A stretch of DNA of 64,000 nt from Candidatus Woykebacteria bacterium RBG_13_40_15 (GCA_001816655.1 MHCP01000030.1:5623-69622), one strand, 5' to 3'. Shown: positions 6,535 to 55,124, numbered from the stretch's first letter. A program made the numbers and translations. The notes: generated by a model from the letters alone, not told the origin.

Positions 6535-8155
6535 GCTAAAAATCCCGAAAAAATATAATCAAGTTGTAAAAACTATACAAAATTCAGGGGCTAAAATTTT
6601 CTTATTTCCTTTTCACCCAATCTTATTTGCCATTTACCCAATATTGTTTTTATATAACCAGAACATAAAAGAAGTTTATTTATCCGAAACAATAATTCCC
6701 TTATCAATCTCATTAATCTCTGCCACAATTATTTTGGTGAGCTTTAATTTCGTCTTCAAGAGTATAAACAAGGCAGCTTTTTTTTCTTCTTTGTTCATAA
6801 TTATATTCTTTTCTCACGGCCATCTTCATAAATTAATTGGGGAAAGGCCCTTCTGGATCTGGTCTTTCAAAATAGGCGTGGACAAGACTTTATTTTTTGT
6901 TTGGGTTTTATTGCTCACCTCTACAATTTTTTTTCTTTTGAGAACAAGAAAGAAATTGTTGACATTTAAAATCACTTTAAATATTGTTGCTATCTTCCTT
7001 GTTTTAATACCCCTATCGAGTATTACTTTGTATGAATTGTCGTCTGGAAGAATCTTAAAGAGAGGCTATTCCGAAAAAACGGCAAAGGAGTTAACAGAAG
7101 ATAAAAGAAACCCCGCCGGTAAAAACCCTGACATATATTACTTAATATTTGATTCTTACGCTGGTAATGATACTATCGAAGGCCTTTATAAATATGATAA
7201 CAGTAGCTTTATGAACTTCCTAAAAGAAAGGGGATTTTATATAGCTACAAAAAGTAACGCAAATTATGCTAAATCATCTCTCTCCTTAGCCTCTTCTCTA
7301 AACATAATGTTCCTCAACGATTTAAGCCAGAGGGCGGGTAATAACTCAAGCGAAACCTTACTTTATCCTTTGATTGAAGACAACAAAGTGGTTTCGTTTT
7401 TAAAATCCGCAGGGTACAACTACTACCATGTAGGGTCTTGGTGGCCCCCCACAAGCAAAAATAGAAATGCGACAAAGAGTTATCAACCAAATGGTGTTTC
7501 ATATTCAGATAATTTTTCTTCTAGATTAATCGACACTACTGCCCTGCTCCCTATAATAAGAGTTCTTTTCCCAAATACTGTTTATTGGGATGATTGGGAA
7601 AGACATTACAAAATAGCTATATTTCAACTTAATACTCTTGAAACAGTAGTTAATAAAAGAGGGCCGAAATTTGTCTTTGCCCACGTCCTACTACCCCATG
7701 GGCCGTTTGTTTTTGGAAAAAATTGTGAATACGTATCAAGAGGGCAACTGGAAAAGAAACCGTCTCGAAATGGCTATTTAGATCAGTTGTCTTGCACTAA
7801 CAAAAAAATCGAGACCCTTGTCGATAAAATACTAGAAGTATCAAAAGAGCCGCCTATAATCATATTGCAAGCTGATGAGGGCGGACCATTCATTAAATAC
7901 AAAAATAATGGAAATAATTATAAGGATTTTAATGACGAGACCCTAAAAGAAAGATATCGGATCATAAACGCTTACTATCTCCCAGGTGTTAAGGATAATC
8001 ATTTGTATAGTACAATAACGCCGGTAAATTCTTTTCGTCTTATCTTTAATCTATATTTTGATAAAAAACTTGATCTTCTTCCAGATAAAAGCTACGCCTA
8101 TGAAAACCTTGACCATCTTTATAAATTTTTTGAGATAACTGAAAGGATAAACTAG
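6515..8155 (+). CDS. membrane-anchored protein with large extracytoplasmic domain, putative alkaline-phosphatase-superfamily (sulfatase/LtaS/EptA-like) enzyme; tandem paralog 1
   Basis: The N-terminus has about 5 TM segments. After it come PDIYYLIFDSYAGNDT, FVFAHVLLPHGPFVFG and IILQADEGGPF. It shares all of these motifs with the neighbouring paralog at 8251..9864. Confidence 0.4.
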   Translation: MVKRTSRLKIPKKYNQVVKTIQNSGAKIFLFPFHPILFAIYPILFLYNQNIKEVYLSETIIPLSISLISATIILVSFNFVFKSINKAAFFSSLFIIIFFSHGHLHKLIGERPFWIWSFKIGVDKTLFFVWVLLLTSTIFFLLRTRKKLLTFKITLNIVAIFLVLIPLSSITLYELSSGRILKRGYSEKTAKELTEDKRNPAGKNPDIYYLIFDSYAGNDTIEGLYKYDNSSFMNFLKERGFYIATKSNANYAKSSLSLASSLNIMFLNDLSQRAGNNSSETLLYPLIEDNKVVSFLKSAGYNYYHVGSWWPPTSKNRNATKSYQPNGVSYSDNFSSRLIDTTALLPIIRVLFPNTVYWDDWERHYKIAIFQLNTLETVVNKRGPKFVFAHVLLPHGPFVFGKNCEYVSRGQLEKKPSRNGYLDQLSCTNKKIETLVDKILEVSKEPPIIILQADEGGPFIKYKNNGNNYKDFNDETLKERYRIINAYYLPGVKDNHLYSTITPVNSFRLIFNLYFDKKLDLLPDKSYAYENLDHLYKFFEITERIN

Positions 8156-19373: not shown

Positions 19374-19745
19374 ATGGAGAAAATAAAAGATTTTACTGAT
19401 TTAAGAATATGGCAGCAAGCACATAAACTAATGCTAGAGATTTATAAGTTAGGTGCAAAATTGCCAAGAGAAGAAAAATTTAACCTTATAGACCAGCTAA
19501 AACGCGCTTCCTTGTCAGTACCAACAAATATAGCCGAAGCTTTTGGTAGGTTTCATTTCACAGACTCCAATCATTTTCTACTAAATGCTAGGGGATCGGC
19601 GTACGAGGTTAGGAGTTTATTAATGGCTGTACGAGATATACAAGGAAAGAATATTATTAATTTTGATAGTTTAGATCATGATTACCAGGAACTAATTAAA
19701 GGAATAAACGCGTTAATTAAATCGCGAAAAGGAAGTAATGGTTAA
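19374..19745 (+). CDS. four-helix-bundle protein (23S rRNA intervening-sequence protein family)
   Basis: MEKIKDFTDLRIWQQAHKLMLEIYKLGAKLPREEKFNLIDQLKRASLSVPTNIAEAFGRF matches the conserved four-helix-bundle family signature. Confidence 0.8.
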   Translation: MEKIKDFTDLRIWQQAHKLMLEIYKLGAKLPREEKFNLIDQLKRASLSVPTNIAEAFGRFHFTDSNHFLLNARGSAYEVRSLLMAVRDIQGKNIINFDSLDHDYQELIKGINALIKSRKGSNG

Positions 19746-22701: not shown

Positions 22702-23670
22702 CTATAAGACGATATTGAACAGGTAACCTGTGAAAATTATCCCTAAACCAACAATCGAGGCAAAAGTAATTATTAGTTTAGGTTTCAAAACCTTCCTAAG
22801 GATGATAAATTCAGGTAATGATAAGGCTGTGACAGACATCATAAAGGCCAAAGCAGTTCCCATTGCCATACCTTTATCAATCAAAACAGAAACGATAGGG
22901 ATTGTTCCTGCTGCGTTTGAATAGAGTGGGATACCGATTACGGTTGCCAAAGGAACAGCAAAAAAGTTTCCTTTACCTGCATAACTAACAAGAAAATCGT
23001 TTGGAATATAACCGTGTATAACTGACCCTAGAGCAACACCGCTAATAATATAAAGCCAAACTTTACCTACTATTTCTTTTGAGTAATTAACTGCGTAGTT
23101 TACCCTGTCTTTGAAAGTTAGTGTTTGTTCACTGCCATTTGCTGCCTTTACCTTATAAACAAATTCCTCTACCCACTTTTCAAGTTTTAATTTGCCTAGG
23201 ATACTTCCGGCAACAGTAGCTATCAAAACACCGCTGACAACATAGATTAAAGCGATTTTCCAACCAAACAGGCCCCAAAGAAGAATAAGGGCGACTTCAT
23301 TTACCATAGGAGAAGATATTAAGAAGGAAAAAGTGACACCTAAAGGAACTCCCGCCTCAACAAATCCGATAAATAATGGTACTGCAGAGCAAGAGCAAAA
23401 TGGCGTAACAATTCCAACCGTGGCAGCTAAGAAGTTATTTAGTAGTGGAAATTTTTGATTCGATAGATACTTCTTTGTTTTTTTAGGAGGGAAGTAAGAG
23501 CGAATAATGGATACAATAAAAATAATAGCCGATAAGAGAATGATGATTTTGATTGTGTCGTAGATAAAAAAGTTTAATGACTTTGCTAACGCAGAACTTT
23601 GGTCAACTTTAAGCAGAGTTTCGGTAATAAATTTAGAAAATAACTCTAACGGATAGAATATCTTATCCAT
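22702..23670 (-). CDS. arsP: ArsP-like permease (DUF318/UPF0718 family, putative organoarsenical efflux)
   Basis: The product is polytopic and carries the TPFCSCS motif in VTPFCSCSAVPLFIGFVEAG. It sits in an operon with arsR and a thioredoxin-like protein. Confidence 0.7.
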   Translation of the reverse strand: MDKIFYPLELFSKFITETLLKVDQSSALAKSLNFFIYDTIKIIILLSAIIFIVSIIRSYFPPKKTKKYLSNQKFPLLNNFLAATVGIVTPFCSCSAVPLFIGFVEAGVPLGVTFSFLISSPMVNEVALILLWGLFGWKIALIYVVSGVLIATVAGSILGKLKLEKWVEEFVYKVKAANGSEQTLTFKDRVNYAVNYSKEIVGKVWLYIISGVALGSVIHGYIPNDFLVSYAGKGNFFAVPLATVIGIPLYSNAAGTIPIVSVLIDKGMAMGTALAFMMSVTALSLPEFIILRKVLKPKLIITFASIVGLGIIFTGYLFNIVL

Positions 23671-23942
23671 TAACAGCAGTCCTTATCAGAACAACAGTTA
23701 TCACCACAAGTATTTTCTAGAATTGCCTCTTTTACGCCCTCAACACTAAAACTTTTGACTTCCGCTAGTGTTCCATCGACTGTAAGTATAGGGCCGTGCA
23801 CAAGACTCATCTCAACTATCTCTTGGACATTTGTTGAGTACTCAATTTCAGCATCAATGTTCGCTTCTTTAACTGCTTCTTTTGCCATTTCGTACAGTTT
23901 TTTACAAGTGGGACAACCCGAACCGATAATTTTAATTTTCAT
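23670..23942 (-). CDS. thioredoxin-fold redox-active disulfide protein 2 (ars-operon associated)
   Basis: The N-terminal CPTCKKLYEMAKEAV has a CxxC in a thioredoxin-like small protein. The C-terminal Cys cluster is GDNCCSDKDCC. Confidence 0.7.
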   Translation of the reverse strand: MKIKIIGSGCPTCKKLYEMAKEAVKEANIDAEIEYSTNVQEIVEMSLVHGPILTVDGTLAEVKSFSVEGVKEAILENTCGDNCCSDKDCC

Positions 23943-24201
23943 TATTTCCTCCTATTTTATTTAATGCTTTTATAATGTTATGAAGGCCATTTTTATTGAG
24001 TGAATAGTAGTTATTCTTACCACAACGACAGTTTTCAATTATTCCTGCTTCTTTTAGTACGCCTAGGTGATGGGAGACAAGATTTTGAGGAAGTTTTACT
24101 TTTTTCTCGATTTCGCAAACGCACAAAGAACCTTTTGATAGTAGTTCAACTATCTTTAATCTATTTTCTTCCGCTAAGGCCTTAAACATATCAATCATCA
24201 T
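23932..24201 (-). CDS. arsR: ArsR/SmtB family metalloregulatory transcriptional repressor
   Basis: It has a wHTH domain with the metal-binding CVC, LSKGSLCVCEIEKKVKLPQNLVSHHLGVLKEAGII. Confidence 0.85.
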   Translation of the reverse strand: MMIDMFKALAEENRLKIVELLSKGSLCVCEIEKKVKLPQNLVSHHLGVLKEAGIIENCRCGKNNYYSLNKNGLHNIIKALNKIGGNNEN

Positions 24202-24394: not shown

Positions 24395-24643
24395 ATGTGT
24401 TACGTAATGAAACCCGAATCATTGCCAAGAAAAATTTTAAATGTATCTATTACCCCAACAATCGAAAATGAAGTAACTTCAATTGCAAAGCAGGAGCAAA
24501 AAACTAAAAGTGAAGTGGTACGCGATGCTATACGCCAGTACAGTATTTCAAGATCCTTAAACAAAATCTATGCTTATGGAAGAGAACGATCCCAAAGTTT
24601 AGGCATCGAAACCTACGAAGATATTGAAAGAATAGCTGGTTAA
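24395..24643 (+). CDS. putative ribbon-helix-helix antitoxin
   Basis: This small ORF immediately precedes the PIN toxin and overlaps it at taATGa. A CopG/RHH-like segment, KTKSEVVRDAIRQY, is present. Confidence 0.5.
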   Translation: MCYVMKPESLPRKILNVSITPTIENEVTSIAKQEQKTKSEVVRDAIRQYSISRSLNKIYAYGRERSQSLGIETYEDIERIAG

Positions 24644-25065
24644 TGAAAGTAGTTTTTGATACTAACGTCCTGATTGCTAACGCTTTAAAAGATGGATTTA
24701 CCAGAGAAATATTTAAACTAGCCGCCAACGGCACTATAGATCTCTTAACCTCAAATCCAATCCTTTCCGAATTAGAAGAAAAACTTAAGATCAAATTTTC
24801 TTGGGAAGAATCAAAAATAAACCAGTATCTGACCGTAATACGAGAAATATCCCAAGTTATAGAGCCTACGGAAAAAATAGATGTCATAAAAAACGATCCA
24901 GATGATAATAAAATTCTCGAGTGTGCGGCAGCTGGAAAAGCTGATCTAATAGTATCGTCAGATAAGGATTTAATAAAACTTAAAAATTTCCAGAGTATTG
25001 GGATAATTCACCCTAGGACTTTATCTTGGACCTTTCCTAAATATTTCAAGAAGAACAAGCCTTAA
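24643..25065 (+). CDS. PIN-domain toxin (VapC-like ribonuclease)
   Basis: MKVVFDTNVLI has the first acidic residue. Further acidic residues are in SELEEKL and DPDDNKILECA...LIVSSDKDL. The fold is a typical PIN and the product is 140 aa. Confidence 0.75.
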   Translation: MKVVFDTNVLIANALKDGFTREIFKLAANGTIDLLTSNPILSELEEKLKIKFSWEESKINQYLTVIREISQVIEPTEKIDVIKNDPDDNKILECAAAGKADLIVSSDKDLIKLKNFQSIGIIHPRTLSWTFPKYFKKNKP

Positions 25066-25311: not shown

Positions 25312-25845
25312 TTATTTTTTAGCAACCTGCAAGATATCTTTCTTTTTCAGGACAATATTTGAAGAACAATTATTTAGAAGTGCTCGGCTTATAAAATTTT
25401 CAAATCCAACATATATTATTTCTTTACCTTCGTCTTTTGCAGTTTTTATGGCAGGCAAAAGATCTGTGTCTGAAGAGATTAAATAGCATTTGTCATATTC
25501 ATTCTTGATAGAACCACGAACAATATCCACAGCAATCTGAACATCAACACCCTTCTCGTGAAATTTACCATCGGACATTAATAAATAACCCAGTTTTATC
25601 TCAATACGTTGATTTCTTAAGCTAGTAAAAAGTTTTTGTTGGTTAGAATAAAGAGTAAGGGATTTTTTATTGTTGTCATATTGCTTTATCTCCCCAACGT
25701 AGTAAATCAAATTTATATTTCCAGCTTTTACAATAGATTTTGCTAATGCAGCGTAATCAAATTCTGTCAGATGAAGTTTAGGAAGAATTTTCTTCACCTT
25801 ATTGTAAAAATTACTGCCATCAAACTGGACTAATATTTTTTCCAT
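25312..25845 (-). CDS. NYN-domain (LabA-like) putative ribonuclease
   Basis: The NYN motifs are LVQFDGSNFYNKV, HEKGVDVQIAVDIV and LISSDTDLLPAIK. Confidence 0.7.
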   Translation of the reverse strand: MEKILVQFDGSNFYNKVKKILPKLHLTEFDYAALAKSIVKAGNINLIYYVGEIKQYDNNKKSLTLYSNQQKLFTSLRNQRIEIKLGYLLMSDGKFHEKGVDVQIAVDIVRGSIKNEYDKCYLISSDTDLLPAIKTAKDEGKEIIYVGFENFISRALLNNCSSNIVLKKKDILQVAKK

Positions 25846-36226: not shown

Positions 36227-36667
36227 GTGGAAATAATTACAAACTCTGCTGAAGAAACAAGAAGTTTTGCAAAAAAAATATCTAAAAACTTGAAGCCAGG
36301 GAATATCTTATCTCTATACGGATCTCTCGGTGCTGGCAAAACCACCTTTATACAAGGCTTGGCACAAGGTCTAGGTTTCAGGCAGAGAGTCTTTTCGCCT
36401 ACTTTTGTAATTGCTCGCCCATACAAAATTGAACAAGGTAACATAAAAACCTTATATCATATAGATCTCTACCGCCTGGAAGGGGTAGGAGACATTGAAA
36501 ATACCGGAATAGAAGAGCTTTTGCTGGATAAAGAAGCCGTATCTACCATTGAGTGGCCTGAAAAAATCGAAAAATGGCTGCCGAAGAAGGCTATAAAGGT
36601 ACGATTGGAAACTCTTGGTAAAGAAAAGAGAAAAATTACCGTAGATCTACCAAACTCGCGGCTCTAA
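36227..36667 (+). CDS. tsaE: tRNA threonylcarbamoyladenosine biosynthesis ATPase TsaE
   Basis: The P-loop is LSLYGSLGAGKTTFIQGLAQGLG. The product is 146 aa, which matches the size of the YjeE family. Confidence 0.8.
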   Translation: MEIITNSAEETRSFAKKISKNLKPGNILSLYGSLGAGKTTFIQGLAQGLGFRQRVFSPTFVIARPYKIEQGNIKTLYHIDLYRLEGVGDIENTGIEELLLDKEAVSTIEWPEKIEKWLPKKAIKVRLETLGKEKRKITVDLPNSRL

Positions 36668-37781
36668 CTAAAAGAAAATCGCAAATTTGTAAAAGATAGT
36701 TTTTGCCCTCTTCTGCTAATTTTGAAGCTGTCATTACTCCTCTAGCTTGGTTTATCAGTTCTCTCGCTAGAGTATCTGAGTATTTCAAGGAACCAGTAGA
36801 TTTTATTATTTCTCGAACCTTTTCTATTTGCCCCTCACTTGCTTTTTTGTTGCCAACTACTTTATTTAAAACCGACTTTTCCAAAAGGTTGGTAAGTTCA
36901 TAAGCTTTTATTATTAAAAGGGTTTTCTTCCCTTCTTTAATATCTGAATCTACTGATTTACCAATTTCTTCTTCTTTTCCGAAAGTCCCAAGGATATCGT
37001 CCTGAATCTGAAAAGCTTGTCCAAGTGGCACCCCATAGGCAGAAAAAATCTGAAAATATTTCTCATCAGCCCCGGCCAGCGCAGCTCCAATGTGAAGTGG
37101 CCGCTCGATTGTATATTTGGCTGTTTTATATTCTAGAATTTTCAAGACATCTGCTTCGGAAATTTGTTTTTTAAATTGCGAAATAACATCCAGATGCTCA
37201 CCATAAGCAGTCTGTTGCTTCATTGCGTTGTAGTAAATTTTGGCGCGGCGAATTCTCTCGGCAGGGAAAGGAGCACTATCAAGCAACTCGTCCGCAAAAG
37301 AAAAGGCTAAATCTCCTGCTAGAATTGCCGCAGAGATACCAAATCTCTGAGAGTCGCCTGAAAAATTGCGGTTTTGGTGAAATTTATCAAAAGCAATGTG
37401 CGCTGTGGGTTGGCCGCGCCGCAAATTCGATTCATCAATAATATCGTCATGAATTATTGCAAAGGTGTGCCAGAGTTCTAAAGCAGCAGAAGCATATAAT
37501 ATCGCCTCGTGGGAACGCCCACCGCTAGCTACGTAAGCAGCGTAGGCAAACGCCGAACGTATTTTTTTACCTCCCGCTCCAACCATTCTTCTGATTTCTT
37601 CAACCAAAACAACGGCCTCCGGGTGAACTTCCGATGCTTCTCTTATCTTTTCGTCGAAATACTCTTCCAAAAAAGGTTCGATTTCTTTTTTAAACCAAGC
37701 GAGAAATTCACTTGCCTTCTTTCCGGAAGTTTCAAGTGATCTGTCGATATAAAGCTCGGGGTATAAAAAAGGTTCTACCAT
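36636..37781 (-). CDS. polyprenyl diphosphate synthase (trans-isoprenyl transferase family)
   Basis: The first DDxxD is FAIIHDDIID and the second is FQIQDDILG. Confidence 0.85.
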   Translation of the reverse strand: MVEPFLYPELYIDRSLETSGKKASEFLAWFKKEIEPFLEEYFDEKIREASEVHPEAVVLVEEIRRMVGAGGKKIRSAFAYAAYVASGGRSHEAILYASAALELWHTFAIIHDDIIDESNLRRGQPTAHIAFDKFHQNRNFSGDSQRFGISAAILAGDLAFSFADELLDSAPFPAERIRRAKIYYNAMKQQTAYGEHLDVISQFKKQISEADVLKILEYKTAKYTIERPLHIGAALAGADEKYFQIFSAYGVPLGQAFQIQDDILGTFGKEEEIGKSVDSDIKEGKKTLLIIKAYELTNLLEKSVLNKVVGNKKASEGQIEKVREIIKSTGSLKYSDTLARELINQARGVMTASKLAEEGKNYLLQICDFLLVRAASLVDLR

Positions 37782-41626: not shown

Positions 41627-43882
41627 ATGGCCACAAATAACTTTATTTCAATAGCCACAGTTATTACCTCTTTTTTACTTGGTACGTACATAATTTATAA
41701 AGACCCCAGGAATAAAATAAATCTAGCTTTCGCTGTGTCGACTTTTTGTGTAACAGGTTGGGTGTTAGTAAATTATTTAGCTGACACCGCTAAAACTCCA
41801 GAACAAGCACTATTTTGGGCACGCATGGCACTAGCCACACCTATAATAATACCCTTGAGCTTACTATATTTTTCTCGGGTCTTTCCAATACAAAGCAAGC
41901 CATTTAAGAGATTAAATTGGTTTTTAATTTCTCTTCCAACTATTATTATTCTGATTCTAACTCCAACAAAACTTAACATAGGAAATGTAAGCTTTACTGA
42001 TTCAGGTCAAGAAACCATCGTCGGACCACTTTATATCCCGTTCGCCATTTATTTTATTGCTTATATATTTGCAACTTTTTTTAACTTATTTAAGTCATAT
42101 AAAACGTTGGGCGGTAGTTATAAAAACCAAATTAGGTACTTATTTCTTGGCTTAACTGGATTTTTCGTAATAGCATTATTAACAAATGCGGTACTTCCAA
42201 TATTTGGGTTGTCTTCATTAGTCAGTTTTGGCCCATTAGCTTCCTTGATATTCTTATTCTCAGTAAGCTATGCCATAGTAAAGCATAGACTCTTAGATAT
42301 AGAAGTTATTATTCGGCGGTCTCTTGTCTATTCAATCCTCTTAGCCACCCTAACCGGTCTTTACTCAATTCTCGTCTTTGGTTTGAATCGTGTTTTTCTA
42401 CCGGAAGGAACCGCAGCTTTCCCAAGAATCACAGATATTATCGCTATTGTTTTAGTTGCTTTGACAGTGGATCCTCTCAAGCGAATAATTGAAAGGTCCA
42501 CAGACAAAGTTTTCTTCAAAGCCCGTTACAATATGGAAGAGACTCTAAACCAAGTCTCGGAAAAGATAGCTTCTGTTATTGAGCTACCTCAACTTGTTGC
42601 AGAAATAAAAAAAGTACTAAAGGAGAGTGTTAAAGTAAGTAAAGTAGCTATTTATGCAAAGGCTGATCACCATTATGTACTCCTAGACAGTACTAATGAT
42701 TTCCACCACCACTTAGATATCTCAACCGAGAAAAAACATTTCATTAAAGACTATCTTGAAAAAAACCCCAAGCTCGTTGTTCTCAGTGACGTAAATCAAG
42801 ACCTGCAAGACAATAAATGGGTGGATCCCAGTCTTGCTGAAACAGTAAAAGCTTTAAGCGAGCACAAGGTTGAAATAATTGCCCCGCTTCTCGTCAAAGG
42901 AGGGCTAACGGGTGCAATGTTTCTAGGCGAAAAACTTTCCCAAGATATTTACTCCAACGAAGACCTACGATTTATTGAGATCCTATCCCACCAAGCAGCT
43001 TTAGCACTTGAAAACGCAAAGCTTTATCAAGAAGAAAAATTGTATGGCGTCCACTTAAAACAAGAGGTGGAAAATGCAACTACGAATCTGCGGGCGGCAA
43101 ATGAAAGATTGAAGGAACTTGATCAGGCGAAGGATGAATTTGTTTCTGTCGCAAGCCATGAACTGCGTACCCCTATGACGGCTATTAAATCTTATATCTG
43201 GCTTGCTTTGCACAATCGAGCTGGTGAAGTAAACGATAAGCTACGCGACTATTTAGATAAAGTCTATACTTCTTCCGAGCGAATGATTGCTCTAATCGGC
43301 GATATGTTGAATGTTTCAAGAATTGAAACAGGCAGAATCCAAATGGAAATTGCGGTTGTTTCTGTTTATAAAGTAGTCGAAATGATCTTAAGCGACCTGT
43401 CTGCAAAGGCTGCGGAACTTGGGGTAACCTTAACGGCTGAAAAAGAAAATATAATTCCCCTAGTCAAAGCTGACAGGAATAAACTAGCAGAAATTCTAAT
43501 GAATCTTGCTGGCAATTCCTTGAAATTCACACCGAGAGGAGGGAAAGTGGTCATTACAGCTAAAAAGAATGGCAGCGCTGTCGAAATTTCCGTAGCTGAC
43601 ACTGGTGTTGGAATTTCCAAGGAAAATATGACCAGGCTTTTTGCGAAATTTGGCCGGATTGAGAGTTCTTATGCAACGGCTGGCCAGGCCGCCTCAACTG
43701 GCACAGGACTTGGACTATGGATCTCCAAAAACTACGTAGAAAAAATGGGCGGTAAGATCTGGGTAAATAGCACTCTCGGCAAAGGTACTACATTTACCTT
43801 CTCCCTTCCGGTAGCTTCCGGAGCCAAGGAAGAAACGGAAATCAAAGAAGAATCTTTTGTCCCTCGGAAAGTCATAACCTAA
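41627..43882 (+). CDS. sensor histidine kinase with N-terminal multi-TM sensor, GAF domain, HisKA and HATPase_c
   Basis: It has about 8 TM helices. The H-box is FVSVASHELRTPMTAI. The N-box LMNLAGNSLKFT and the G-boxes DTGVGIS and GTGLGLWISK are present. No response regulator lies adjacent. Confidence 0.85.
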   Translation: MATNNFISIATVITSFLLGTYIIYKDPRNKINLAFAVSTFCVTGWVLVNYLADTAKTPEQALFWARMALATPIIIPLSLLYFSRVFPIQSKPFKRLNWFLISLPTIIILILTPTKLNIGNVSFTDSGQETIVGPLYIPFAIYFIAYIFATFFNLFKSYKTLGGSYKNQIRYLFLGLTGFFVIALLTNAVLPIFGLSSLVSFGPLASLIFLFSVSYAIVKHRLLDIEVIIRRSLVYSILLATLTGLYSILVFGLNRVFLPEGTAAFPRITDIIAIVLVALTVDPLKRIIERSTDKVFFKARYNMEETLNQVSEKIASVIELPQLVAEIKKVLKESVKVSKVAIYAKADHHYVLLDSTNDFHHHLDISTEKKHFIKDYLEKNPKLVVLSDVNQDLQDNKWVDPSLAETVKALSEHKVEIIAPLLVKGGLTGAMFLGEKLSQDIYSNEDLRFIEILSHQAALALENAKLYQEEKLYGVHLKQEVENATTNLRAANERLKELDQAKDEFVSVASHELRTPMTAIKSYIWLALHNRAGEVNDKLRDYLDKVYTSSERMIALIGDMLNVSRIETGRIQMEIAVVSVYKVVEMILSDLSAKAAELGVTLTAEKENIIPLVKADRNKLAEILMNLAGNSLKFTPRGGKVVITAKKNGSAVEISVADTGVGISKENMTRLFAKFGRIESSYATAGQAASTGTGLGLWISKNYVEKMGGKIWVNSTLGKGTTFTFSLPVASGAKEETEIKEESFVPRKVIT

Positions 43883-48691: not shown

Positions 48692-49303
48692 TCAGTTATT
48701 CTTTGCTCCAAATGCTTTCCTCACCTTCTCCTGAACTTCCAGCAGAAGCTTTCGGAGATAGAGGTCCGTTATTATCTGGTCCCCCTCGGCGAAGAAGGAG
48801 TTTAGGGAAGCCATTCCTTCGTTACCTGGCTGCTCCCGGCAGAACAAACCCCAGCTAGCCCCTACAAGCGGATGGATCTCCCGCAGGTAGCGATCTTCTC
48901 GGGTTTTCCCCTCGTAGTACTCTACCCATGCTTCCCGAAGGACATTACGAACTTTCCTACTCAGCGGCCTCGTCAACTTCCACATCGCTCTCTTCTCCTC
49001 AGCGAAAAAGAGAGTCTCCCAATCACGCCAATCCTTCACCCGTTCTCGGGCTCTTTCCCAGAAGCGCCTGATTTGAGCTCTCGTCCGCCCCTTCGAGTAA
49101 ACTTGGGCGGGGTTACGATCGGTAGTCAGTATCTCGTGCAAATCGTGAGCTATTGCTTTGATCGCAAGCTTCGCGAGGTCCAGCTCAAGCCCCCTTGACA
49201 GATTGTCGAAAAACCCGAAGAAGAAAAGGCTTGCACTGTGCTCGAGACTAGACTCAAATCTCGTTTGGACATCCCTATCCGGCCAACCACTCCTAATCGT
49301 CAA
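48692..49303 (-). CDS. hypothetical Arg/Trp-rich protein in a short GC-rich insert (ORFan)
   Basis: The ORF has a long open frame and strongly elevated GC relative to the neighbours. No recognisable domain was found. Confidence 0.4.
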   Translation of the reverse strand: MTIRSGWPDRDVQTRFESSLEHSASLFFFGFFDNLSRGLELDLAKLAIKAIAHDLHEILTTDRNPAQVYSKGRTRAQIRRFWERARERVKDWRDWETLFFAEEKRAMWKLTRPLSRKVRNVLREAWVEYYEGKTREDRYLREIHPLVGASWGLFCREQPGNEGMASLNSFFAEGDQIITDLYLRKLLLEVQEKVRKAFGAKNN

Positions 49304-49461
49304 TTGCCAACCGGAAGATTAGCCTTAAGAGAATCCAGGAGTCTTGATTTTGCGCCATCGTTCTCTCCTCCTTCTAGGATCAAGTCCTATTAGAAACTGC
49401 CGATCGACGCAAAGGTGGAGCGTATTATATATTATTTAGGGTATATTTGCAAGCTACAGGA

Positions 49462-50736
49462 TTACAACTTGGTGCTGTAGTAGTGACGGTCGAGGGCTTC
49501 TACAAATCTTAAAAGAAAAGGGTCGTCTACAAGTTCTTTTAAACCTAGCCAAAAAGAGGTAGGTGAAACGCTTTTGTCCTTCTTGTGATACTCCATCGCC
49601 TGCAAAACTGTCTCAATCCGATCTACTTGTCTAGCATATCTTCCTTCTTTACTTGTCCCTGTTCTAAATTCAAGCCATAAATACTTTAGTTCATGACGCT
49701 GGTAATGCGGCAGGTATTTAAAAAGCTTTTCCATGGCACTACTTTCTTTTTGCAAAGCCTCTTTCATAATAACTTCTTTTTCCTGTTTCAAACCAATCCA
49801 AGGAAAGGTCTCTATAACACGGTCTATATCTTTTAATTTTTCTAGGAAAACATCATGAGGTGTGTGATCACCAATATCTACTGTAAACAAATTGTGGATC
49901 CCCGACATTACAATCATCGCCTCTTGATCCAACCTGCGGCTTACCGAAAAGATCCAAGAAGCAAAGGCTACTAAGAATGAGTGGGAAGCAACTGATTCTG
50001 GGTCCTTCACTCCTCTCAAAACCCACCCTTTTCTTTTTATCTCCTTCAATTTGCCAATTTCGAGTAAGAATTCAATGATATTTCTGTCTTTTTTGGTTTT
50101 TACATCTCCCTTACCACTCTTAATGTATATCTGCAAACTCTCAACGAATTTCAAAAGTTGTTTGTCATAGGTAAACTCTTTAATTTGAACTAAAAACGGA
50201 GTTAGAATATCCTCTTTCACTTTATCTTTGTATTCAAAAGCTTGTATAAGATTTTCTATTTTGTCTAGAGCTCTTAAAAATTTAGCTTCCCTGGAACTGC
50301 GTTGCTGAAATTCCAACCAAAGATAATTAATCTCGTGATTAATTGGTTCAGGAAGGTTTCTAGTAAGTTTTTCCATAGCTTTCTTTTCTTCCTCTAGTCT
50401 TTGTTTAGCTATCTTACCTTTTTGATCTATTGGAGCCCGAAGGGCCAAGGCTGGGTATCTCTTTATAATTTCTTTTCTGTTTTTTAGTTCGAGCAATTTA
50501 TCGTAGGGGCTTATGTAATCAATATAAACGGCTGAAAGGCTATGGACTAAAGCGAGTTTTAGAAGTCTTTTGATGTTTAAGTTTCTTTCTTTTCCAAATA
50601 CCCAAGCGAGAATTAGAACCCGAAAAGCATGGTCGGCTACACTCTCTGGGTTATTTATGCCGCGGAGGAGCCAACCTCTTCGCTGAATAGTCTTTAGCCT
50701 TCCTACTTCAACAAAAAATTTTATAAATTCTTCCAT
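49462..50736 (-). CDS. tandem HD-domain phosphohydrolase (two YfbR-like 5'-nucleotidase-type HD modules)
   Basis: IQRRGWLLRGINNPESVADHAFRVLILAWVFG is repeated as IKRKGWVLRGVKDPESVASHSFLVAFASWIFS. Both copies carry the RAL/RQVDRIE-type downstream helices. Confidence 0.75.
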   Translation of the reverse strand: MEEFIKFFVEVGRLKTIQRRGWLLRGINNPESVADHAFRVLILAWVFGKERNLNIKRLLKLALVHSLSAVYIDYISPYDKLLELKNRKEIIKRYPALALRAPIDQKGKIAKQRLEEEKKAMEKLTRNLPEPINHEINYLWLEFQQRSSREAKFLRALDKIENLIQAFEYKDKVKEDILTPFLVQIKEFTYDKQLLKFVESLQIYIKSGKGDVKTKKDRNIIEFLLEIGKLKEIKRKGWVLRGVKDPESVASHSFLVAFASWIFSVSRRLDQEAMIVMSGIHNLFTVDIGDHTPHDVFLEKLKDIDRVIETFPWIGLKQEKEVIMKEALQKESSAMEKLFKYLPHYQRHELKYLWLEFRTGTSKEGRYARQVDRIETVLQAMEYHKKDKSVSPTSFWLGLKELVDDPFLLRFVEALDRHYYSTKL

Positions 50737-50858: not shown

Positions 50859-51320
50859 CTAATTAATCTCGATTATGGTATAAGTAGACTTAATAGTCGA
50901 CGCAACAGTAACGACATCTCCTACCTTTGTTCCTATCAGTGTTTTTCCAACAGGGCTTTGATCGGAGATTTTTCCTTGCATGGGATCTGCCTCAATCGAG
51001 GAAACAATGATAAATTCATCTCTCTCGCCATTTACTTCAACTTTTACACGTGAGCCTACCTGAACTAAACCGGGTTTTTCTACTTGAGTAACTACTTTTG
51101 CATTCCGAAGTATCTCTTCAAGTTCGATTATTCTTCCTTCAATAAACGACTGTTCTTCTCTCGCACTGTCATATTCTGAATTTTCAGCAATATCACCAAA
51201 TTCTCTTGCGCGGGCAATGCGTTTTGTAACTTCTTTTCTTCTTATCTTCGTAAGATCTTCGTATTCTTTTTGAAGTTTTTCTAATCCCTGTTTAGTCAGG
51301 AAAATCTTGGCTTTTTCCAT
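50859..51320 (-). CDS. greA: transcription elongation factor GreA
   Basis: The N-terminus is MEKAKIFLTKQGLEKLQKEYEDL. The coiled-coil has acidic tip residues in FGDIAENSEYD. A C-terminal FKBP-like domain follows. The start was chosen at the internal Met. Confidence 0.9.
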   Translation of the reverse strand: MEKAKIFLTKQGLEKLQKEYEDLTKIRRKEVTKRIARAREFGDIAENSEYDSAREEQSFIEGRIIELEEILRNAKVVTQVEKPGLVQVGSRVKVEVNGERDEFIIVSSIEADPMQGKISDQSPVGKTLIGTKVGDVVTVASTIKSTYTIIEIN

Positions 51321-51538
51321 AAATTCTCCTTCTGTCTGAAATAAAAAACCCCACACTGGGGACTTGGAGGTCTTTTACTTTTACCCTTAATGGTTTAGGT
51401 TTCAGGAGGAACAATAGCACAAATGGGTCGTTTTTGTCAACAACCAATCACCAAGCTAGCCTCTTAATTCGAGTAGGTTGCCTCTTGCATCTTCCAAGTA
51501 GACAGCCTTAAAATGATTATGTTACTCTGTTTAATCGT

Positions 51539-52306
51539 ATGGAAAATAACTATAAAAACCTCAGAGTCTACAACACTATAATGGGTTTTTTACATTTGGC
51601 TCAAGGTACAACTGTACTTCTTCTTAGCAACGATTTTAAACTTCCAATAAACACAACTTATTTAAGTTTCAACTCTACTTTAAAAGTGTTGGAACCAGTT
51701 ACAAAGCAGCTTTTCCAAGTCAAATTTGGAATATTGGTTGCCGCCTTTCTACTCATTTCCGCAGCCGCCCACTTTATAATCTCGACTGTTTATTACAAAA
51801 ATTACCAACAAAACTTAAGTAAAGGAATAAATAAAGCTAGGTGGTTTGAATATGCTTTCTCCGCTTCGCTAATGATTGTATTGATTGGAATGTTGAGCGG
51901 AATTTACGATCTTTCAAGCTTACTAATGATGTTTGGGCTGGTAGCAATTATGAACCTTTGTGGGTTACTAATGGAACTTTACAATCAGGGTAAAGAACAG
52001 GTCAATTGGGCTTCTTTCATTGTTGGTTGTATTGCGGGTATTATCCCTTGGATTGTAATTGCGATTTATTTCTGGGCAGCAGAAATAAACGGCAGCAGCA
52101 ACAATATCCCAACCTTTGTCTATTGGATTTTTGTTTCAATCTTCCTTTTCTTCAACAGCTTTGCCCTCAATATGTTTTTGCAATATAAAAAGGTGGAACC
52201 ATGGAAAGACTATCTTTTTGGAGAAAGAGTGTATATTCTGCTTAGCCTAACTGCCAAATCGGCTCTGGCCTGGCAAATCTTCGCCGGCACTTTGCGCCCA
52301 ATGTAA
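51539..52306 (+). CDS. heliorhodopsin
   Basis: It has 7 TM helices. The family motifs are GFLHLAQG (His in TM1), AAHFIIS (His in TM2) and RWFEYAFSASLMIVLIG, where the Glu corresponds to the Schiff-base counterion position. Also present are FIVGCIAGIIPW and FLFFNSFALNMFLQYKK, followed by GERVYILLSLTAKSALAWQIFAGTLRP with the retinal-binding Lys. Confidence 0.85.
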   Translation: MENNYKNLRVYNTIMGFLHLAQGTTVLLLSNDFKLPINTTYLSFNSTLKVLEPVTKQLFQVKFGILVAAFLLISAAAHFIISTVYYKNYQQNLSKGINKARWFEYAFSASLMIVLIGMLSGIYDLSSLLMMFGLVAIMNLCGLLMELYNQGKEQVNWASFIVGCIAGIIPWIVIAIYFWAAEINGSSNNIPTFVYWIFVSIFLFFNSFALNMFLQYKKVEPWKDYLFGERVYILLSLTAKSALAWQIFAGTLRPM

Positions 52307-52355
52307 TTAAATCGATTAACTAAACTCGACAACCGCCATTCAGTTTATTAGAATC

Positions 52356-53201
52356 TTGTTAATGACTAAATTATTAATTTACAGAGAAGATTTAAAGATA
52401 CTTGTACAAGAAAAAGCAAATGAACTAACTTTGCCCAACACTGATTTGACTAATCATGAGGATATAAGATTATTTGCACTTAAAAATCTTGGTTTTTCGA
52501 TCCGAAGTTTTGGACAAAGACATAAAGATATCTTGATAGCGAGAAGGATATTTGGAGACCAAAAAGAAGGATTAAAATGGGTAGGCCTAGAAGAAGCTTC
52601 CAAATTGATCGGAATGAAAGAGGAAATCATCAAAACATGGATCGATAAAGACATTGAATACTCAACAAAGAAGCAACTTGAACTTATCAAAAAAGTTTTT
52701 GATGAATTTAAGAAACAAAAGATTGATATTTTTATGTGGGGAGGTTGGGCGATTGATTTTTTGGTAGGGCATGTGACAAGACTACATATTGACATCGATA
52801 CACTTGTCTGGAAAAAGGATAAAGAAAAGGTAGAGAAGATAATGGGAAATTTAGGCTTTTCGATGCAAGATAAGATACGAAAATTTCAAAATGAATATGA
52901 AGGCTTTCAATTCGATACTGATTTTGTAGAACCCTACAACAGTGACTTTATTTCCAGCAGATCACCGCAAACAAAAGGGTTAAAATGGTCAAAAGAAACT
53001 TTTTATGAAGCATTTGAAGCGAAAATGGGCGATGTCCAAGTTACAGTGATAAATCCTAAATCCCTTTATTCTTCTCTTGAGTATAAACTTAAGTTTTACA
53101 AAAGAAAGATAGGTGAGACAAGCGGACCAGTAGAAAAGACAAAGCAAGATTTGGAAACTTTAAAGAACCTGAAGCTTTATTTTCCTACTCAAAAAAGTTA
53201 A
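52356..53201 (+). CDS. nucleotidyltransferase-domain protein of the ANT(2'')/Lnu-like family with ~110-aa N-terminal extension
   Basis: IDIFMWGGWAIDFLVGHVTRLHIDIDTLV matches the characteristic LWIGGGWAIDARLGRVTRKHDDIDL core of aminoglycoside-2''-adenylyltransferase-family NTases. Confidence 0.6.
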   Translation: MLMTKLLIYREDLKILVQEKANELTLPNTDLTNHEDIRLFALKNLGFSIRSFGQRHKDILIARRIFGDQKEGLKWVGLEEASKLIGMKEEIIKTWIDKDIEYSTKKQLELIKKVFDEFKKQKIDIFMWGGWAIDFLVGHVTRLHIDIDTLVWKKDKEKVEKIMGNLGFSMQDKIRKFQNEYEGFQFDTDFVEPYNSDFISSRSPQTKGLKWSKETFYEAFEAKMGDVQVTVINPKSLYSSLEYKLKFYKRKIGETSGPVEKTKQDLETLKNLKLYFPTQKS

Positions 53202-54034
53202 ACAACTCTTTCAAATTTATTTTCGGCAACATCTCCGATATATAACCCAACCCTATTTTCATGACACTGCTCAACTAAAACTTTTCTCACTGCATCATCA
53301 AAAGAAAATCCTTGCTCAACCAACCTGTCTTCCTGTTCATTCATCCCTTTTGCGTAAGCTGACCGCCCTGCTGATTCAAAGGATGAACTTTCTTTAGTCC
53401 TTACCATCGCATACAAAGTATCTTGACCTATTACTAACCTTGTCTGATCAGCTTCACCAATGGGAAAAATCATTTTACTAAAATCTTGAGCACTTGGAGG
53501 ATTACCGGAAGGATGTGTATGAATAGAACCTAAAACTTTTTTACCTCTTTCAATCTCTACCCATTCTCTTTTCGCAAAACACTTGTTAAGAAGTGCCGCA
53601 TTCGAATAATTTGCGGGCACCAAAATGAATTCTTTATCTGGATGATCAGATAGAGGAACGTGCTTCCTCATAGCTTGATCAATCCCCACTATCATCATAT
53701 CAGTATTGTCACCAAAAGAAGATAGATCCCAAATAGTAACTCGAACACTATCTTCAGAACCTCGATTCAATTCTCTCAAGGTTAGACCATTACTAGCATT
53801 TACATACAAAACTCCGCTAACTTCTTTGCCAGATTCCTTTGACCATTTAGCCAGGGATGAAAGGCCATATTTGATCTCATCACTAAAAGAAATTTCTTTC
53901 GGTAGCTCACCAATAGACCTTTCTTCCATAAAAAGATCTTCGGCATTGGTTGATTTTTCAGGGGGCTTATTAACTGCTGTGTCTTCAGGACCAAGACCCC
54001 TGTCCTCTGCTGATGGACCAAATTCACCTGACAT
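53198..54034 (-). CDS. JAB/MPN (RadC-like) metalloprotease-fold domain protein
   Basis: The C-terminal region contains GSIHTHPSGNPPSAQD, which matches the H-x-H-P-S-G-x-P-x-P-S-x-x-D JAB/RadC signature. The N-terminal half is unknown. Confidence 0.5.
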   Translation of the reverse strand: MSGEFGPSAEDRGLGPEDTAVNKPPEKSTNAEDLFMEERSIGELPKEISFSDEIKYGLSSLAKWSKESGKEVSGVLYVNASNGLTLRELNRGSEDSVRVTIWDLSSFGDNTDMMIVGIDQAMRKHVPLSDHPDKEFILVPANYSNAALLNKCFAKREWVEIERGKKVLGSIHTHPSGNPPSAQDFSKMIFPIGEADQTRLVIGQDTLYAMVRTKESSSFESAGRSAYAKGMNEQEDRLVEQGFSFDDAVRKVLVEQCHENRVGLYIGDVAENKFERVV

Positions 54035-54103
54035 AAGACAAGTATTTCAGGAAGGTTGGTTTTAGTCAAGGAAAAACAAAAAAATAGGAGAACAAGCAAT
54101 CCT

Positions 54104-54216
54104 GGTGACGCTACGGGGGATAGAACGCTACAGCGTCCTGCGACCATTTCTCCCGATTGAATCGGGATCCGTGGACTTCGAACCCCGGTTTAGTAGGTGA
54201 CCCGCCTGCCTAGATT
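54104..54216 (-). pseudogene. tRNA-derived remnant: degenerate duplicate of tRNA-Glu 3' end (T-arm/acceptor) plus unrelated anticodon-like hairpin; not a functional tRNA
   Basis: The plus-strand tggtgacgctacgggggatagaac is compared with the tRNA-Glu 3' end tggtaccgccagggggattcgaac. The T-stem 5' strand is missing and no cloverleaf could be built. The hairpin tcccgATTGAATcggga lies between. Confidence 0.35.
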
Positions 54217-54293
54217 TGGTACCGCCAGGGGGATTCGAACCCCCGATCTCAGCGTTGAGAACGCTGCGTCCTAGACCACTAGACGATGGCGGC
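54217..54293 (-). tRNA. tRNA-Glu (anticodon CUC)
   Basis: The minus-strand read is GCCGCCATCGTCTAGTGGTCTAGGACGCAGCGTTCTCAACGCTGAGATCGGGGGTTCGAATCCCCCTGGCGGTACCA. It has a 7-bp acceptor stem, the anticodon loop TTCTCAA, the T-loop GGTTCGAATCC and an encoded CCA. Confidence 0.8.
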
Positions 54294-54479
54294 ATATTCG
54301 GGCAGGGAACCACGCTAGACGATAGCGTCAAAACTTAAAACAGAGAGATTAGATTATATATTTTTTCGCTTTTGGAGTCAAAGTTTGGAATCCAAAACAA
54401 AGTAAACTATCTTGACAATTATTAATCAAATAAAGTACCCTAAAGCAAGGAGGCTGCCCTTTTTATTAGGGCAGAAATT

Positions 54480-55124
54480 ATGCCCGAAGCACCAAATGAT
54501 CCATTAAATAATCCAACACCGCCTGCAGGAAACCCCGCGGTTGGAGGGTCGGTAAGCAACTCAACGCCAACACCACCGCCTTTAGACCCAATTGCACCAG
54601 CACCGGTTGATCCAGCTCCAATCACGCCTAACCCAGCACCGTCTGCTCCAGATCCAGTAGCTACTCAACCAACTGTTCCTCTAGCACAAGAAACAGCACC
54701 GCCTTCAGCTCCCGCGATTGACCCAGTCTCTAGCCCACAAGCGGCTCCTGAACCAGCAGCGACGCCTCCTCCAACAAGTACTGCTCCTACCACCAATCCG
54801 ATGGTAACTAGCGATCAACCAGCAACTCAAGGGGCACCTGGAGAAGAAGTTGGGCCATCTTGGCTTCGCCCAACCCCTGAACAAGGCGGCCAACCTCAAG
54901 CAGAACCACAGCAAGCTCCAGATCTTCCACCACTAACAGATGTGCCACCACCTTGGCAAGTGCCTGCAGAAAACGCCCCAGCGGAAACCCCACAACCGAT
55001 TGCTGAAGAGCGTCATAGTGGTTTTCCGGTAGCTATATTTATAATTTTAATACTAGGAATTATTGTAGCTATTGGTGCCTGGTTGTTCATAAGTGGTAAT
55101 CTGGGTTTTCCCTTTACCGGATAA
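54480..55124 (+). CDS. proline/alanine-rich low-complexity protein with C-terminal transmembrane tail anchor
   Basis: The product is 214 aa with a PxP-rich composition and ends in VAIFIILILGIIVAIGAWLFISG. Confidence 0.55.
   Translation: MPEAPNDPLNNPTPPAGNPAVGGSVSNSTPTPPPLDPIAPAPVDPAPITPNPAPSAPDPVATQPTVPLAQETAPPSAPAIDPVSSPQAAPEPAATPPPTSTAPTTNPMVTSDQPATQGAPGEEVGPSWLRPTPEQGGQPQAEPQQAPDLPPLTDVPPPWQVPAENAPAETPQPIAEERHSGFPVAIFIILILGIIVAIGAWLFISGNLGFPFTG

Follow-up and report, generated by a model that had tools for sequence, protein, structure and literature searches.

Is the heliorhodopsin (HeR) gene of Candidatus Woykebacteria bacterium RBG_13_40_15 linked to the nucleotidyltransferase (NTase) gene that follows it on the same strand, or are the two independent neighbors? 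An earlier note on this DNA had proposed a conserved link between them, and had read a partial duplicate of a nearby tRNA-Glu gene as the scar of an integration event. The locus lies in the 64,000-nucleotide stretch of DNA that was analyzed here (the window), and its features are listed in Table 1. The description of the source as a CPR-like genome is correct, as Candidatus Woykebacteria RBG_13_40_15 belongs to the Microgenomates group.

Table 1. Features of the HeR locus, with positions counted from the first nucleotide of the window
Feature	Position	Strand	Evidence or remarks
greA promoter-like site, TTGACA-18-TATTGT	51411-51440	-	10/12 matches; in the greA-HeR divergent spacer
HeR gene	51539-52306	+	255 aa, intact; Pfam, NCBIfam, alignment, tree
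NTase promoter-like site, TCGACA-17-TAGAAT	52326-52354	+	10/12 matches
NTase gene, two-domain	52356-53201	+	PF10706, motifs, predicted structure
JAB/JAMM-like ORF	53198-54034	-	E162, H172-x-H174-x6-S181-x2-D184
Decayed second tRNA-Glu, 3' fragment	54103-54140	-	Shuffle-tested alignment
Degenerate tRNA-like element, immediately after tRNA-Glu	54141-54216	-	Conserved with L002
tRNA-Glu(CUC), intact, encoded CCA	54217-54293	-	Orthologous to the L002 tRNA-Glu
5' tRNA-like fragment, GACGCTA-TC-GTCT-AGCGTGG	54301-54329	-	Score 22 versus shuffle maximum 20, borderline; conserved with L002
tRNA-Glu unit promoter-like site, TTGACT-17-TATAAT	54353-54381	-	11/12 matches; conserved in L002

The HeR ORF matched the Pfam family PF18761 over the whole profile (positions 1-242 of 242, E=1e-100, 336.5 bits, cutoff 26.7) and the NCBIfam equivalog NF038020 (348 bits, cutoff 100). 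Its top-scoring solved structure was 6is6 (E=1.8e-84), one of the entries for TaHeR of Thermoplasmatales archaeon SG8-52-1 (PDB 6is6, 7clj, and 7u55). The window protein is 57% identical to TaHeR over its full length with one 6-residue gap, and it has the same His/His/Glu/Ser-x3-Lys chromophore-site residues; it differs from TaHeR in a helix 5-6 loop that is 6 residues longer (GSSNNI region) and in its host, which is a CPR bacterium rather than an archaeon. Identity to the founding heliorhodopsin, 48C12 (PDB 6su3 and 6uh3), was just 48%, although the two belong to the same family and their chromophore-site residues align (H19=H23, H78=H80, E104=E107, S236=S237, and K240=K241, window residue first). 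The motifs that had been quoted for the helix 1 His, the helix 2 His, the counterion Glu, and the Schiff-base Lys are all present in the translation and align with those of known HeRs. The counterion E104 aligns with the residue mutated in the TaHeR E108D entry 7clj, and the Schiff-base K240, in the SxxxK motif of helix 7, aligns with TaHeR K238. Among 35 relatives, H78, E104, S236, and K240 were invariant, and H19 was at least 90% conserved.

In a neighbor-joining tree of 84 HeRs rooted with 48C12 (a distance tree without bootstrap), the window protein fell inside the HeR clade. It grouped with the HeRs of L010 and L011 within a clade dominated by Saccharibacteria, Dojkabacteria, and Patescibacteria, on a branch separate from TaHeR; this CPR-dominated clade stands beside the Chloroflexi and Thermoplasmata/TaHeR clades. 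From these results, we conclude that the window gene, as judged from its sequence, is a bona fide heliorhodopsin that keeps every key residue. The gap-poor 57% identity to TaHeR suggests that the protein would also have the inverted membrane orientation of HeRs, with a cytoplasmic N-terminus.

HeRs are already documented in CPR bacteria, as 86 of 1326 CPR genomes, including those of Microgenomatia, were reported to carry them (Chiriac et al. 2022, PMC9166423). The window HeR clusters with such sequences, which were reported to form clades of their own, and it shares the SxxxK motif with HeRs of Saccharimonadia, Dojkabacteria, ABY1, Microgenomatia, and other CPR classes described there (PMC9166423). 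That survey was centered on freshwater lakes, whereas the window genome comes from aquifer sediment, and a search of the supplement of PMC9166423 found neither the RBG_13_40_15 genome nor Woykebacteria. The supply of the chromophore also has a published precedent. Family searches of the 58 ORFs of at least 80 aa in the 64-kb window gave no match to retinal or carotenoid biosynthesis families, which bears out, for this window, the statement that retinal biosynthesis genes are missing; the polyprenyl synthase noted at 36636-37781 was confirmed. PMC9296517, citing Shihoya 2019, states that HeR quickly binds external retinal in organisms that lack the pathway, and the TaHeR host is described as likewise lacking retinal synthesis and thought to capture external retinal (PMC9296517). 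A HeR in a CPR bacterium and the uptake of external retinal are thus both already published and not new (PMC9166423, PMC9296517).

As the earlier note had it, the gene about 50 bp downstream of HeR encodes an ANT(2'')-type C-terminal domain preceded by an extra N-terminal domain. The NTase ORF starts 49 nt after the HeR stop codon, or 55 nt after it if translation begins at the ATG at 52362, which is likely the true start to judge from its use by homologues. Residues 111-253 matched PF10706 (E=4e-11, 43.7 bits, cutoff 21), and the GGW at 129-131 and the acidic pair D146-x-D148 were invariant. A Foldseek search with the AF2 model (pLDDT 90) returned LnuA (4fo1, E=6e-10) and ANT(2'')-Ia (E=7e-9), with weaker Nudix matches for the roughly 105 extra N-terminal residues, which have a degenerate Nudix-like fold (about residues 1-105); a profile search also matched LnuA (E=2e-8). 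The C-terminal domain shares its fold (target-normalized TM-score 0.72) and its catalytic GG...DxD motif with LnuA and ANT(2'')-Ia (PDB 4fo1 and 5cfu), but identity is only about 20%, and the degenerate Nudix-like domain is an addition. An assignment to a named resistance allele (ANT(2'')-Ia or Lnu(A-P)) was rejected, as the best scores against the NCBIfam resistance-allele models (18-31 bits over about 50-65 residues) were far below the cutoffs of 300-350 bits. The NTase family has about 15 members, and all those with a named source are from Woykebacteria.

The locus that holds both genes is syntenic among related genomes, running from GreA to tRNA-Glu, UppS, and Lon, and it occurs in four states. 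One genome (L096) has neither gene and the order greA-tRNA-Glu-...-UppS-Lon; a second (L002) has the NTase and no HeR at the locus; a third (L010) has greA, HeR, and 390 bp of non-coding DNA before tRNA-Glu, with no NTase there; and the window has both. The L010 contig is 1.9 kb long, and an NTase could sit elsewhere in that genome. A tblastn search for a HeR remnant in the greA-NTase spacer of L002 found nothing, and a search for an NTase remnant in the 390-bp spacer of L010 gave a low-complexity, non-significant alignment alone.

Beyond this locus, the neighborhoods of HeR and of NTase were surveyed separately. The NTase was absent within ±6 kb of all 80 HeR loci surveyed in species-representative genomes (tblastn, and the family HMM at E<=1). 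Conversely, no HeR lay in any of four independent NTase neighborhoods, and the NTase homologues P0003, P0004, and P0008 lie in unrelated contexts without HeR. Neighbor families of any kind recurred in at most 5 of 83 loci of the HeR clade, and three published HeR neighbor surveys (one of them PMC11109279) name no nucleotidyltransferase. Adjacency to a tRNA was rejected as a general HeR trait, with a tRNA within 1 kb at about 4 of 60 loci. The proposed partnership between HeR and NTase fails because related genomes carry either gene alone at the same spot. Comparison of these loci shows that the two genes were apparently gained and lost independently here and that they are never neighbors elsewhere in the loci compared; their pairing as a conserved link is therefore largely refuted.

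The arrangement of the two genes in the window nevertheless resembles that of HeRs with known partners, and a functional pair, in which HeR, once activated by light, would bind the NTase and regulate it in the way reported for glutamine synthetase, photolyase, and the ABC transporter OmrDE, was considered on that account. HeRs do regulate the products of adjacent genes (PMC11109279), and the NTase is a same-strand neighbor separated from HeR by 49-55 nt in which a terminator-like site was sought and none was found. Because such a site is missing between the genes, read-through and co-transcription of HeR and NTase in the window genome are possible. However, known partners appear beside HeR in many genomes, under a shared promoter (PMC11109279), whereas the NTase recurs at 0/80 HeR loci and has a promoter-like site of its own that is conserved in the HeR-less L002; the alignment of the NTase upstream regions of the window and L002 contains the identical stretch AGTTTATTAGAATCTT. 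With every combination of presence and absence seen at the orthologous locus, no HeR in any of the NTase contexts, and nucleotidyltransferases missing from the published neighbor analyses, we regard a functional pair as extremely improbable.

The other side of the NTase gene carries a convergent ORF, the JAB/RadC-like gene of the earlier note, which overlaps the NTase end by 4 nt. Its assignment to JAB is tentative and based on motifs: E162, H172, H174, and D184 are invariant, with a spacing of x6 instead of the x7 in E...HxH-x7-S-x2-D, but the Pfam Prok-JAB score (20.3 bits) fell short of the cutoff (25). The PADLOC JAB model matched at E=9e-4 and AfJAMM at E~1, the structure prediction was poor (pLDDT 51), and RadC gave no match to this ORF. 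An insertion of roughly 890 bp (53202-54102), not present in L002, L010, or L096, contains the ORF.

The tRNA-Glu next to this insertion is flanked by real tRNA debris. The decayed 3' fragment retains the 3' strand of the D-stem, the 5' strand of the anticodon stem, a deletion, the 3' strand of the T-stem, the acceptor TAGCGTC, and ACCA, and it aligned to the 3' half of the L010 tRNA-Glu with a local score of 33, where 200 shuffles reached 19 at most. The acceptor strand of the 5' tRNA-like fragment on the other side is perfectly complementary to it. An Rfam scan (E<=10) of the tRNA region of the window and of L002 found the tRNA itself and no other RNA family. The duplicate of the tRNA 3' end is thus genuine, but its reading as an integration scar did not hold, as L002, which lacks both HeR and JAB, has the same debris next to its tRNA-Glu. 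Because it is orthologous there, the debris marks neither the HeR nor the JAB insertion.

These observations bear on a further possibility, namely that HeR, NTase, and JAB are the cargo of one integrative element targeted to tRNA-Glu, with the 3' fragment as its att scar. Debris on both sides of the tRNA gene would fit such an element, as would the gene content between greA and tRNA-Glu, which differs in HeR, NTase, and JAB among L096, L002, L010, and the window, and an NTase in another genome (L004) that is likewise directly adjacent to 3' ends of tRNA genes. However, the three genes do not travel together (NTase only in L002, HeR only in L010, and JAB only in the window), the orthology of the debris with L002 extends 5 nt past its 3' end, and the local ORFs contained no integrase or recombinase domain. 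The greA side provided no second boundary either: no tRNA-like repeat was found between HeR and greA in the window, and an att-like candidate in L002 (5861-5905) was rejected because its score of 22 was below the 27 reached by shuffles. In addition, the GC content is host-like (0.372 for HeR, 0.391 for the window), and viral contigs gave no match to the NTase family and one weak match to the JAB family. A single integrative element is thus a very unlikely source of this locus.

The history of the HeR gene itself can be read from its closest counterpart. Between the window and L010, greA is 83% and HeR 84% identical at the amino acid level, and the whole greA-HeR spacer of the window can be aligned with this sister contig. 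The dN/dS ratios for the same pair were 0.043 for HeR and 0.055 for greA, values that are approximate, with dS saturated at 2.2. Taken together, the data make it very probable that the window encodes a retinal-binding HeR that is vertically inherited and independent of a separately promoted NTase and of a later JAB insertion, the three genes forming no functional module.

Under this explanation of independent neighbors, HeR would have been acquired between greA and tRNA-Glu in one sublineage of Woykebacteria, prior to the split of the window and L010 organisms, and would since have been passed down vertically under strong purifying selection. Its sequence predicts a functional TaHeR-like photoreceptor that has seven helices, binds retinal, and belongs to a CPR-dominated clade. 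By analogy with characterized HeRs, it most likely binds all-trans-retinal from outside the cell. It may then work as a light sensor or regulator with a slow cycle, touching a partner protein directly to modulate it; the locus does not reveal which protein this would be. The NTase would have occupied the same interval for longer, under a promoter of its own, and its sequence and model suggest an O-nucleotidylyltransferase of LnuA/ANT(2'') type that acts on small molecules and has a degenerate Nudix-like domain at its N-terminus. The JAB-like gene would be a later insertion of a single gene, and all three would be independent cargo of a variable spot next to tRNA-Glu.

The RBG_13_40_15 bin comes from RBG13, a core of aquifer sediment taken at a depth of 3-4 m (PMC5079060), and it is mildly odd that a genome from such a dark source carries a HeR under strong purifying selection. 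A light-sensing role in aquifer sediment at this depth is hard to picture. The HeR of a subsurface lineage might instead have a light-independent role, in binding retinoids or another ligand or as a structural or regulatory membrane protein. Consistent with this, the sediment is permanently dark, purifying selection acts on HeR as strongly as on greA with all residues intact, and close relatives of this HeR occur in further anaerobes (Dehalococcoidia and Thermoplasmata, for example). However, all residues of retinal photochemistry are conserved, as a light-dependent function predicts, and the Colorado River adjoins the aquifer, from which side cells may arrive from lit habitats. To our knowledge, every characterized HeR is light-dependent. 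We consider a light-independent role of this HeR unlikely, and see a similarly small chance that HeRs of the window clade have a light-independent activity as well, such as the sensing or sequestration of retinoids from a host or of another ligand.

As it stands, the window supplies a further intact heliorhodopsin for the published CPR set, which matters little, and the NTase is removed as a false lead for a HeR partner. The four related genomes with four combinations of HeR and NTase at one locus provide a clean natural experiment, one that shows the shuffling of single genes beside a tRNA-Glu in reduced genomes. A wider reach comes from the habitat alone, as a conserved light receptor in an episymbiont from dark sediment adds to the unsettled question of HeR function. 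If the light-independent reading were true, the HeRs of the window clade would not be photoreceptors only.

The heliorhodopsin (HeR) gene recognized in the earlier note is genuine and ordinary. Its product covers the whole Pfam HeR model (E=1e-100) and scores 348 bits against the NCBIfam HeR equivalog (cutoff 100). The closest solved structures are those of the Thermoplasmatales archaeon SG8-52-1 protein TaHeR (6is6, E=1.8e-84, 57% identity) and the founding heliorhodopsin 48C12 (6su3, E=2.5e-60, 48% identity). Residues H19, H78, E104, S236, and K240 align with H23, H80, E107, S237, and K241 of 48C12, and E104 also falls at the position substituted in 7clj, the E108D entry of TaHeR, so that the Lys, the Glu, and both His residues are where characterized heliorhodopsins have them. 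Across 35 relatives, four of these residues (H78, E104, S236, and K240) never vary, and H19 shows at least 90% conservation; homologues at E<1e-30 number more than 7,500.

In a neighbour-joining tree of 84 sequences, the protein groups with its homologues on contigs L010 (84% identical) and L011 (66%), within a clade mostly of Saccharibacteria, Dojkabacteria, and other Patescibacteria that adjoins the Chloroflexi and Thermoplasmata/TaHeR clades. This placement matches the published picture, in which HeRs occur in 86 of 1326 CPR genomes, Microgenomatia among them, and form clades of their own (Chiriac et al., PMC9166423); the combination was already known. The CPR attribution of the window is correct, since its nucleotidyltransferase (NTase) is 100% identical to a protein on a 145-kb contig of Candidatus Woykebacteria bacterium RBG_13_40_15, which belongs to the Patescibacteria / Microgenomates group. 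ORF calling recovered the genes that had been named.

Features of the HeR locus and of other parts of the window
Feature	Position	Strand	Basis or remark
23S rRNA intervening-sequence protein gene	19374-19745		
ArsR-thioredoxin-permease trio	22702-24201		
RHH-PIN toxin-antitoxin pair	24395-25065		
NYN-domain gene	25312-25845		
Polyprenyl synthase	36636-37781		Pfam
HisKA_7TM-GAF-HisKA-HATPase histidine kinase	41627-43882	+	
Two adjacent HD-domain genes	48692-50736	-	
greA	50859-51356	-	ORF call
HeR, 255 aa	51539-52306	+	ORF call
NTase, 281 aa	52356-53201	+	ORF call
JAB-like ORF, 278 aa	53198-54034	-	convergent with NTase, 4-nt overlap with NTase stop
Degenerate tRNA-like element	54141-54216	-	sequence comparison
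tRNA-Glu(CUC)	54217-54293	-	tRNA detection
5' tRNA fragment	54301-54329	-	acceptor strand GACGCTA
Pro/Thr-rich ORF	54480-55124	+	

The point of interest in the earlier note, a conserved partnership between HeR and the NTase gene that follows it, is refuted. The decisive case is L002, a contig syntenic with the window (SerRS-HD-LysRS-x-HD_3-GreA, NTase, tRNA-Glu, Pro-rich ORF, UppS, Lon), which encodes an NTase 67% identical to that of the window and has 395 bp of non-coding DNA at the position of HeR. In L010, the closest relative on the HeR side (greA 83% and HeR 84% identical, with an alignable greA-HeR spacer), HeR is followed by ∼390 bp of AT-rich non-coding DNA and the 3' half of a convergent tRNA-Glu; both NTase and the JAB gene are absent from this contig. 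The syntenic locus in L096 runs from greA through 170 bp to tRNA-Glu and lacks both HeR and NTase. Together with the window, these contigs therefore present all four HeR/NTase presence/absence states at one locus.

A wider survey gave the same result. No NTase was found within ±6 kb of HeR, by tblastn or by the family HMM at E<=1, at any of 80 HeR loci from species-representative genomes (many of them CPR, one another Woykebacteria), and HeR was absent from all 4 independent neighbourhoods of NTase homologues. No neighbour family recurred in more than 5 of 83 HeR loci. Three published surveys of HeR neighbours list DUF2177, DegV, DUF1295, histidine kinases, glutamine synthetase, photolyase, ABC transporters, and others, a nucleotidyltransferase not being among them. 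In addition, the 49-nt HeR-NTase spacer holds a promoter-like site (TCGACA-17-TAGAAT) that aligns with the region upstream of NTase in the HeR-less L002, so that NTase came with, or retained, its own predicted promoter. The L002 greA-NTase spacer contains a ∼46-nt tandem duplication (5612-5690; ATAAATTTCCTAATTTACrTCACGCTTTAGCrGGAT).

The NTase has the architecture originally proposed, an ANT(2'')-type C-terminal domain with an extra N-terminal domain. Residues 111-253 match PF10706 above cutoff. In Foldseek, the C-terminal domain of a confident AF2 model (pLDDT 90) aligns structurally with LnuA and ANT(2'')-Ia (target-normalised TM-score 0.72; E=6e-10 to 3e-8). The window protein shares this fold with the two resistance enzymes but adds an N-terminal domain with weaker Nudix-fold matches (E ∼1e-3), whose Nudix box we infer to be degenerate. 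Among 5.8 billion proteins, only 15 belong to its family, and the few that carry a source name come from Woykebacteria. GGW129-131 and D146-x-D148 are invariant in the family alignment, and the enzyme is therefore probably active; it lies far from all named resistance alleles (∼30 bits, against cutoffs of 300-350). In a different genomic context, contig L004 (6001-7105), NTase again abuts tRNA 3' ends, here those of tRNA-Lys and tRNA-Arg; this is a hint that NTase, as a gene, relocates to positions near tRNAs.

The JAB-like ORF, absent from the L002 locus, is a window-specific single-gene insertion. It accounts for the extra ∼890 bp of the window (53202-54102), where L002 has ∼11 nt between the NTase stop and tRNA debris. 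The ORF scores below the Pfam JAB cutoff, its motif is E...HxH-x6-S-x2-D, one residue shorter than the usual JAMM motif, and its structure model is unusable. Its only five homologues, distant ones, all lie in unannotated contexts, among hypothetical genes in CPR-type contigs; one weak match to the family occurs in an IMG/VR contig.

The tRNA-derived fragment at 54103-54140, which had been read as an integration scar, is real: its final 24 nt align with the tRNA-Glu 3' end of L010 (score 33, shuffle maximum 19). The debris exceeds what had been seen, including also a 5' fragment and a degenerate element. The GACGCTA of the 5' fragment is the exact complement of TAGCGTC in the 3' fragment, where ACCA follows. 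The intact tRNA-Glu is nested in another, decayed tRNA-Glu, whose two halves bracket it (54103-54329, minus strand) and whose 3' end is the same as that of the apparently intact tRNA-Glu 3' half ending L010 (1813-1862). Orthologous, more decayed debris lies directly after tRNA-Glu in L002 (6823-7110), aligned to the 3' end and 5 nt past it and matching the L096 tRNA 3' end (score 31, shuffle maximum 20). Since L002 lacks both HeR and JAB, the debris marks the insertion of neither. No integrase was found near the tRNA-Glu locus, nor any matching repeat on the greA side, and the scar reading is wrong in its specifics. L096 has one clean tRNA-Glu (6236-6312). A Saccharimonadales HeR (6001-6741 of its contig) has a tRNA-Glu(CTC) 117 bp upstream (5808-5884), probably by coincidence, because only about 4 of 60 HeR loci have some tRNA within 1 kb.

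A Pro/Thr-rich ORF comes next after tRNA-Glu, and then uppS and a gene for a Lon-like AAA+ protein. The first, divergent from the tRNA-Glu promoter and anchored in the membrane by one transmembrane helix at its C terminus, keeps its position in relatives (L002, 7231-7872; L096, 6382-7218) with hardly any conservation of sequence, and its GC content is unusually high (0.52, window 0.39). The paired HD-domain genes are also conserved in L002 and L096; one, of 424 aa, contains the HD_3 / YfbR-like 5'-deoxynucleotidase domain twice, as an internal duplication.

As had been claimed, retinal-synthesis genes are absent within the 64-kb window: none of its 58 ORFs of at least 80 aa matched the Blh, CrtI, CrtB, or CrtY families in Pfam, the sole related genes being the polyprenyl synthase and UppS. 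That HeR takes up external retinal in hosts without the pathway is already published (PMC9296517, citing Shihoya 2019). The base composition of HeR is host-like. HeR is intact, has been inherited vertically since the window and L010 diverged, and is constrained by purifying selection as strongly as greA (dN/dS 0.043 and 0.055, respectively, with dS saturated).

The genome was binned from the RBG13 sample, Rifle aquifer sediment taken at a depth of 3-4 m (PMC5079060), a dark habitat, yet HeR is as constrained as greA. A conserved light receptor is odd in such a place. A light-independent role has a small probability; alternatively, lit water may also be among the habitats of the source organism. 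The locus itself points to no partner protein for HeR. The histidine kinase 7.7 kb from HeR fits a loose pattern and is a possible lead: Bulzu et al. (2021) report that several phyla, Patescibacteria among them, have histidine kinases no more than 10 kb from HeRs. By analogy with characterized heliorhodopsins, the window HeR would most likely bind scavenged all-trans-retinal and serve as a slow photoreceptor, controlling a partner protein through direct contact.
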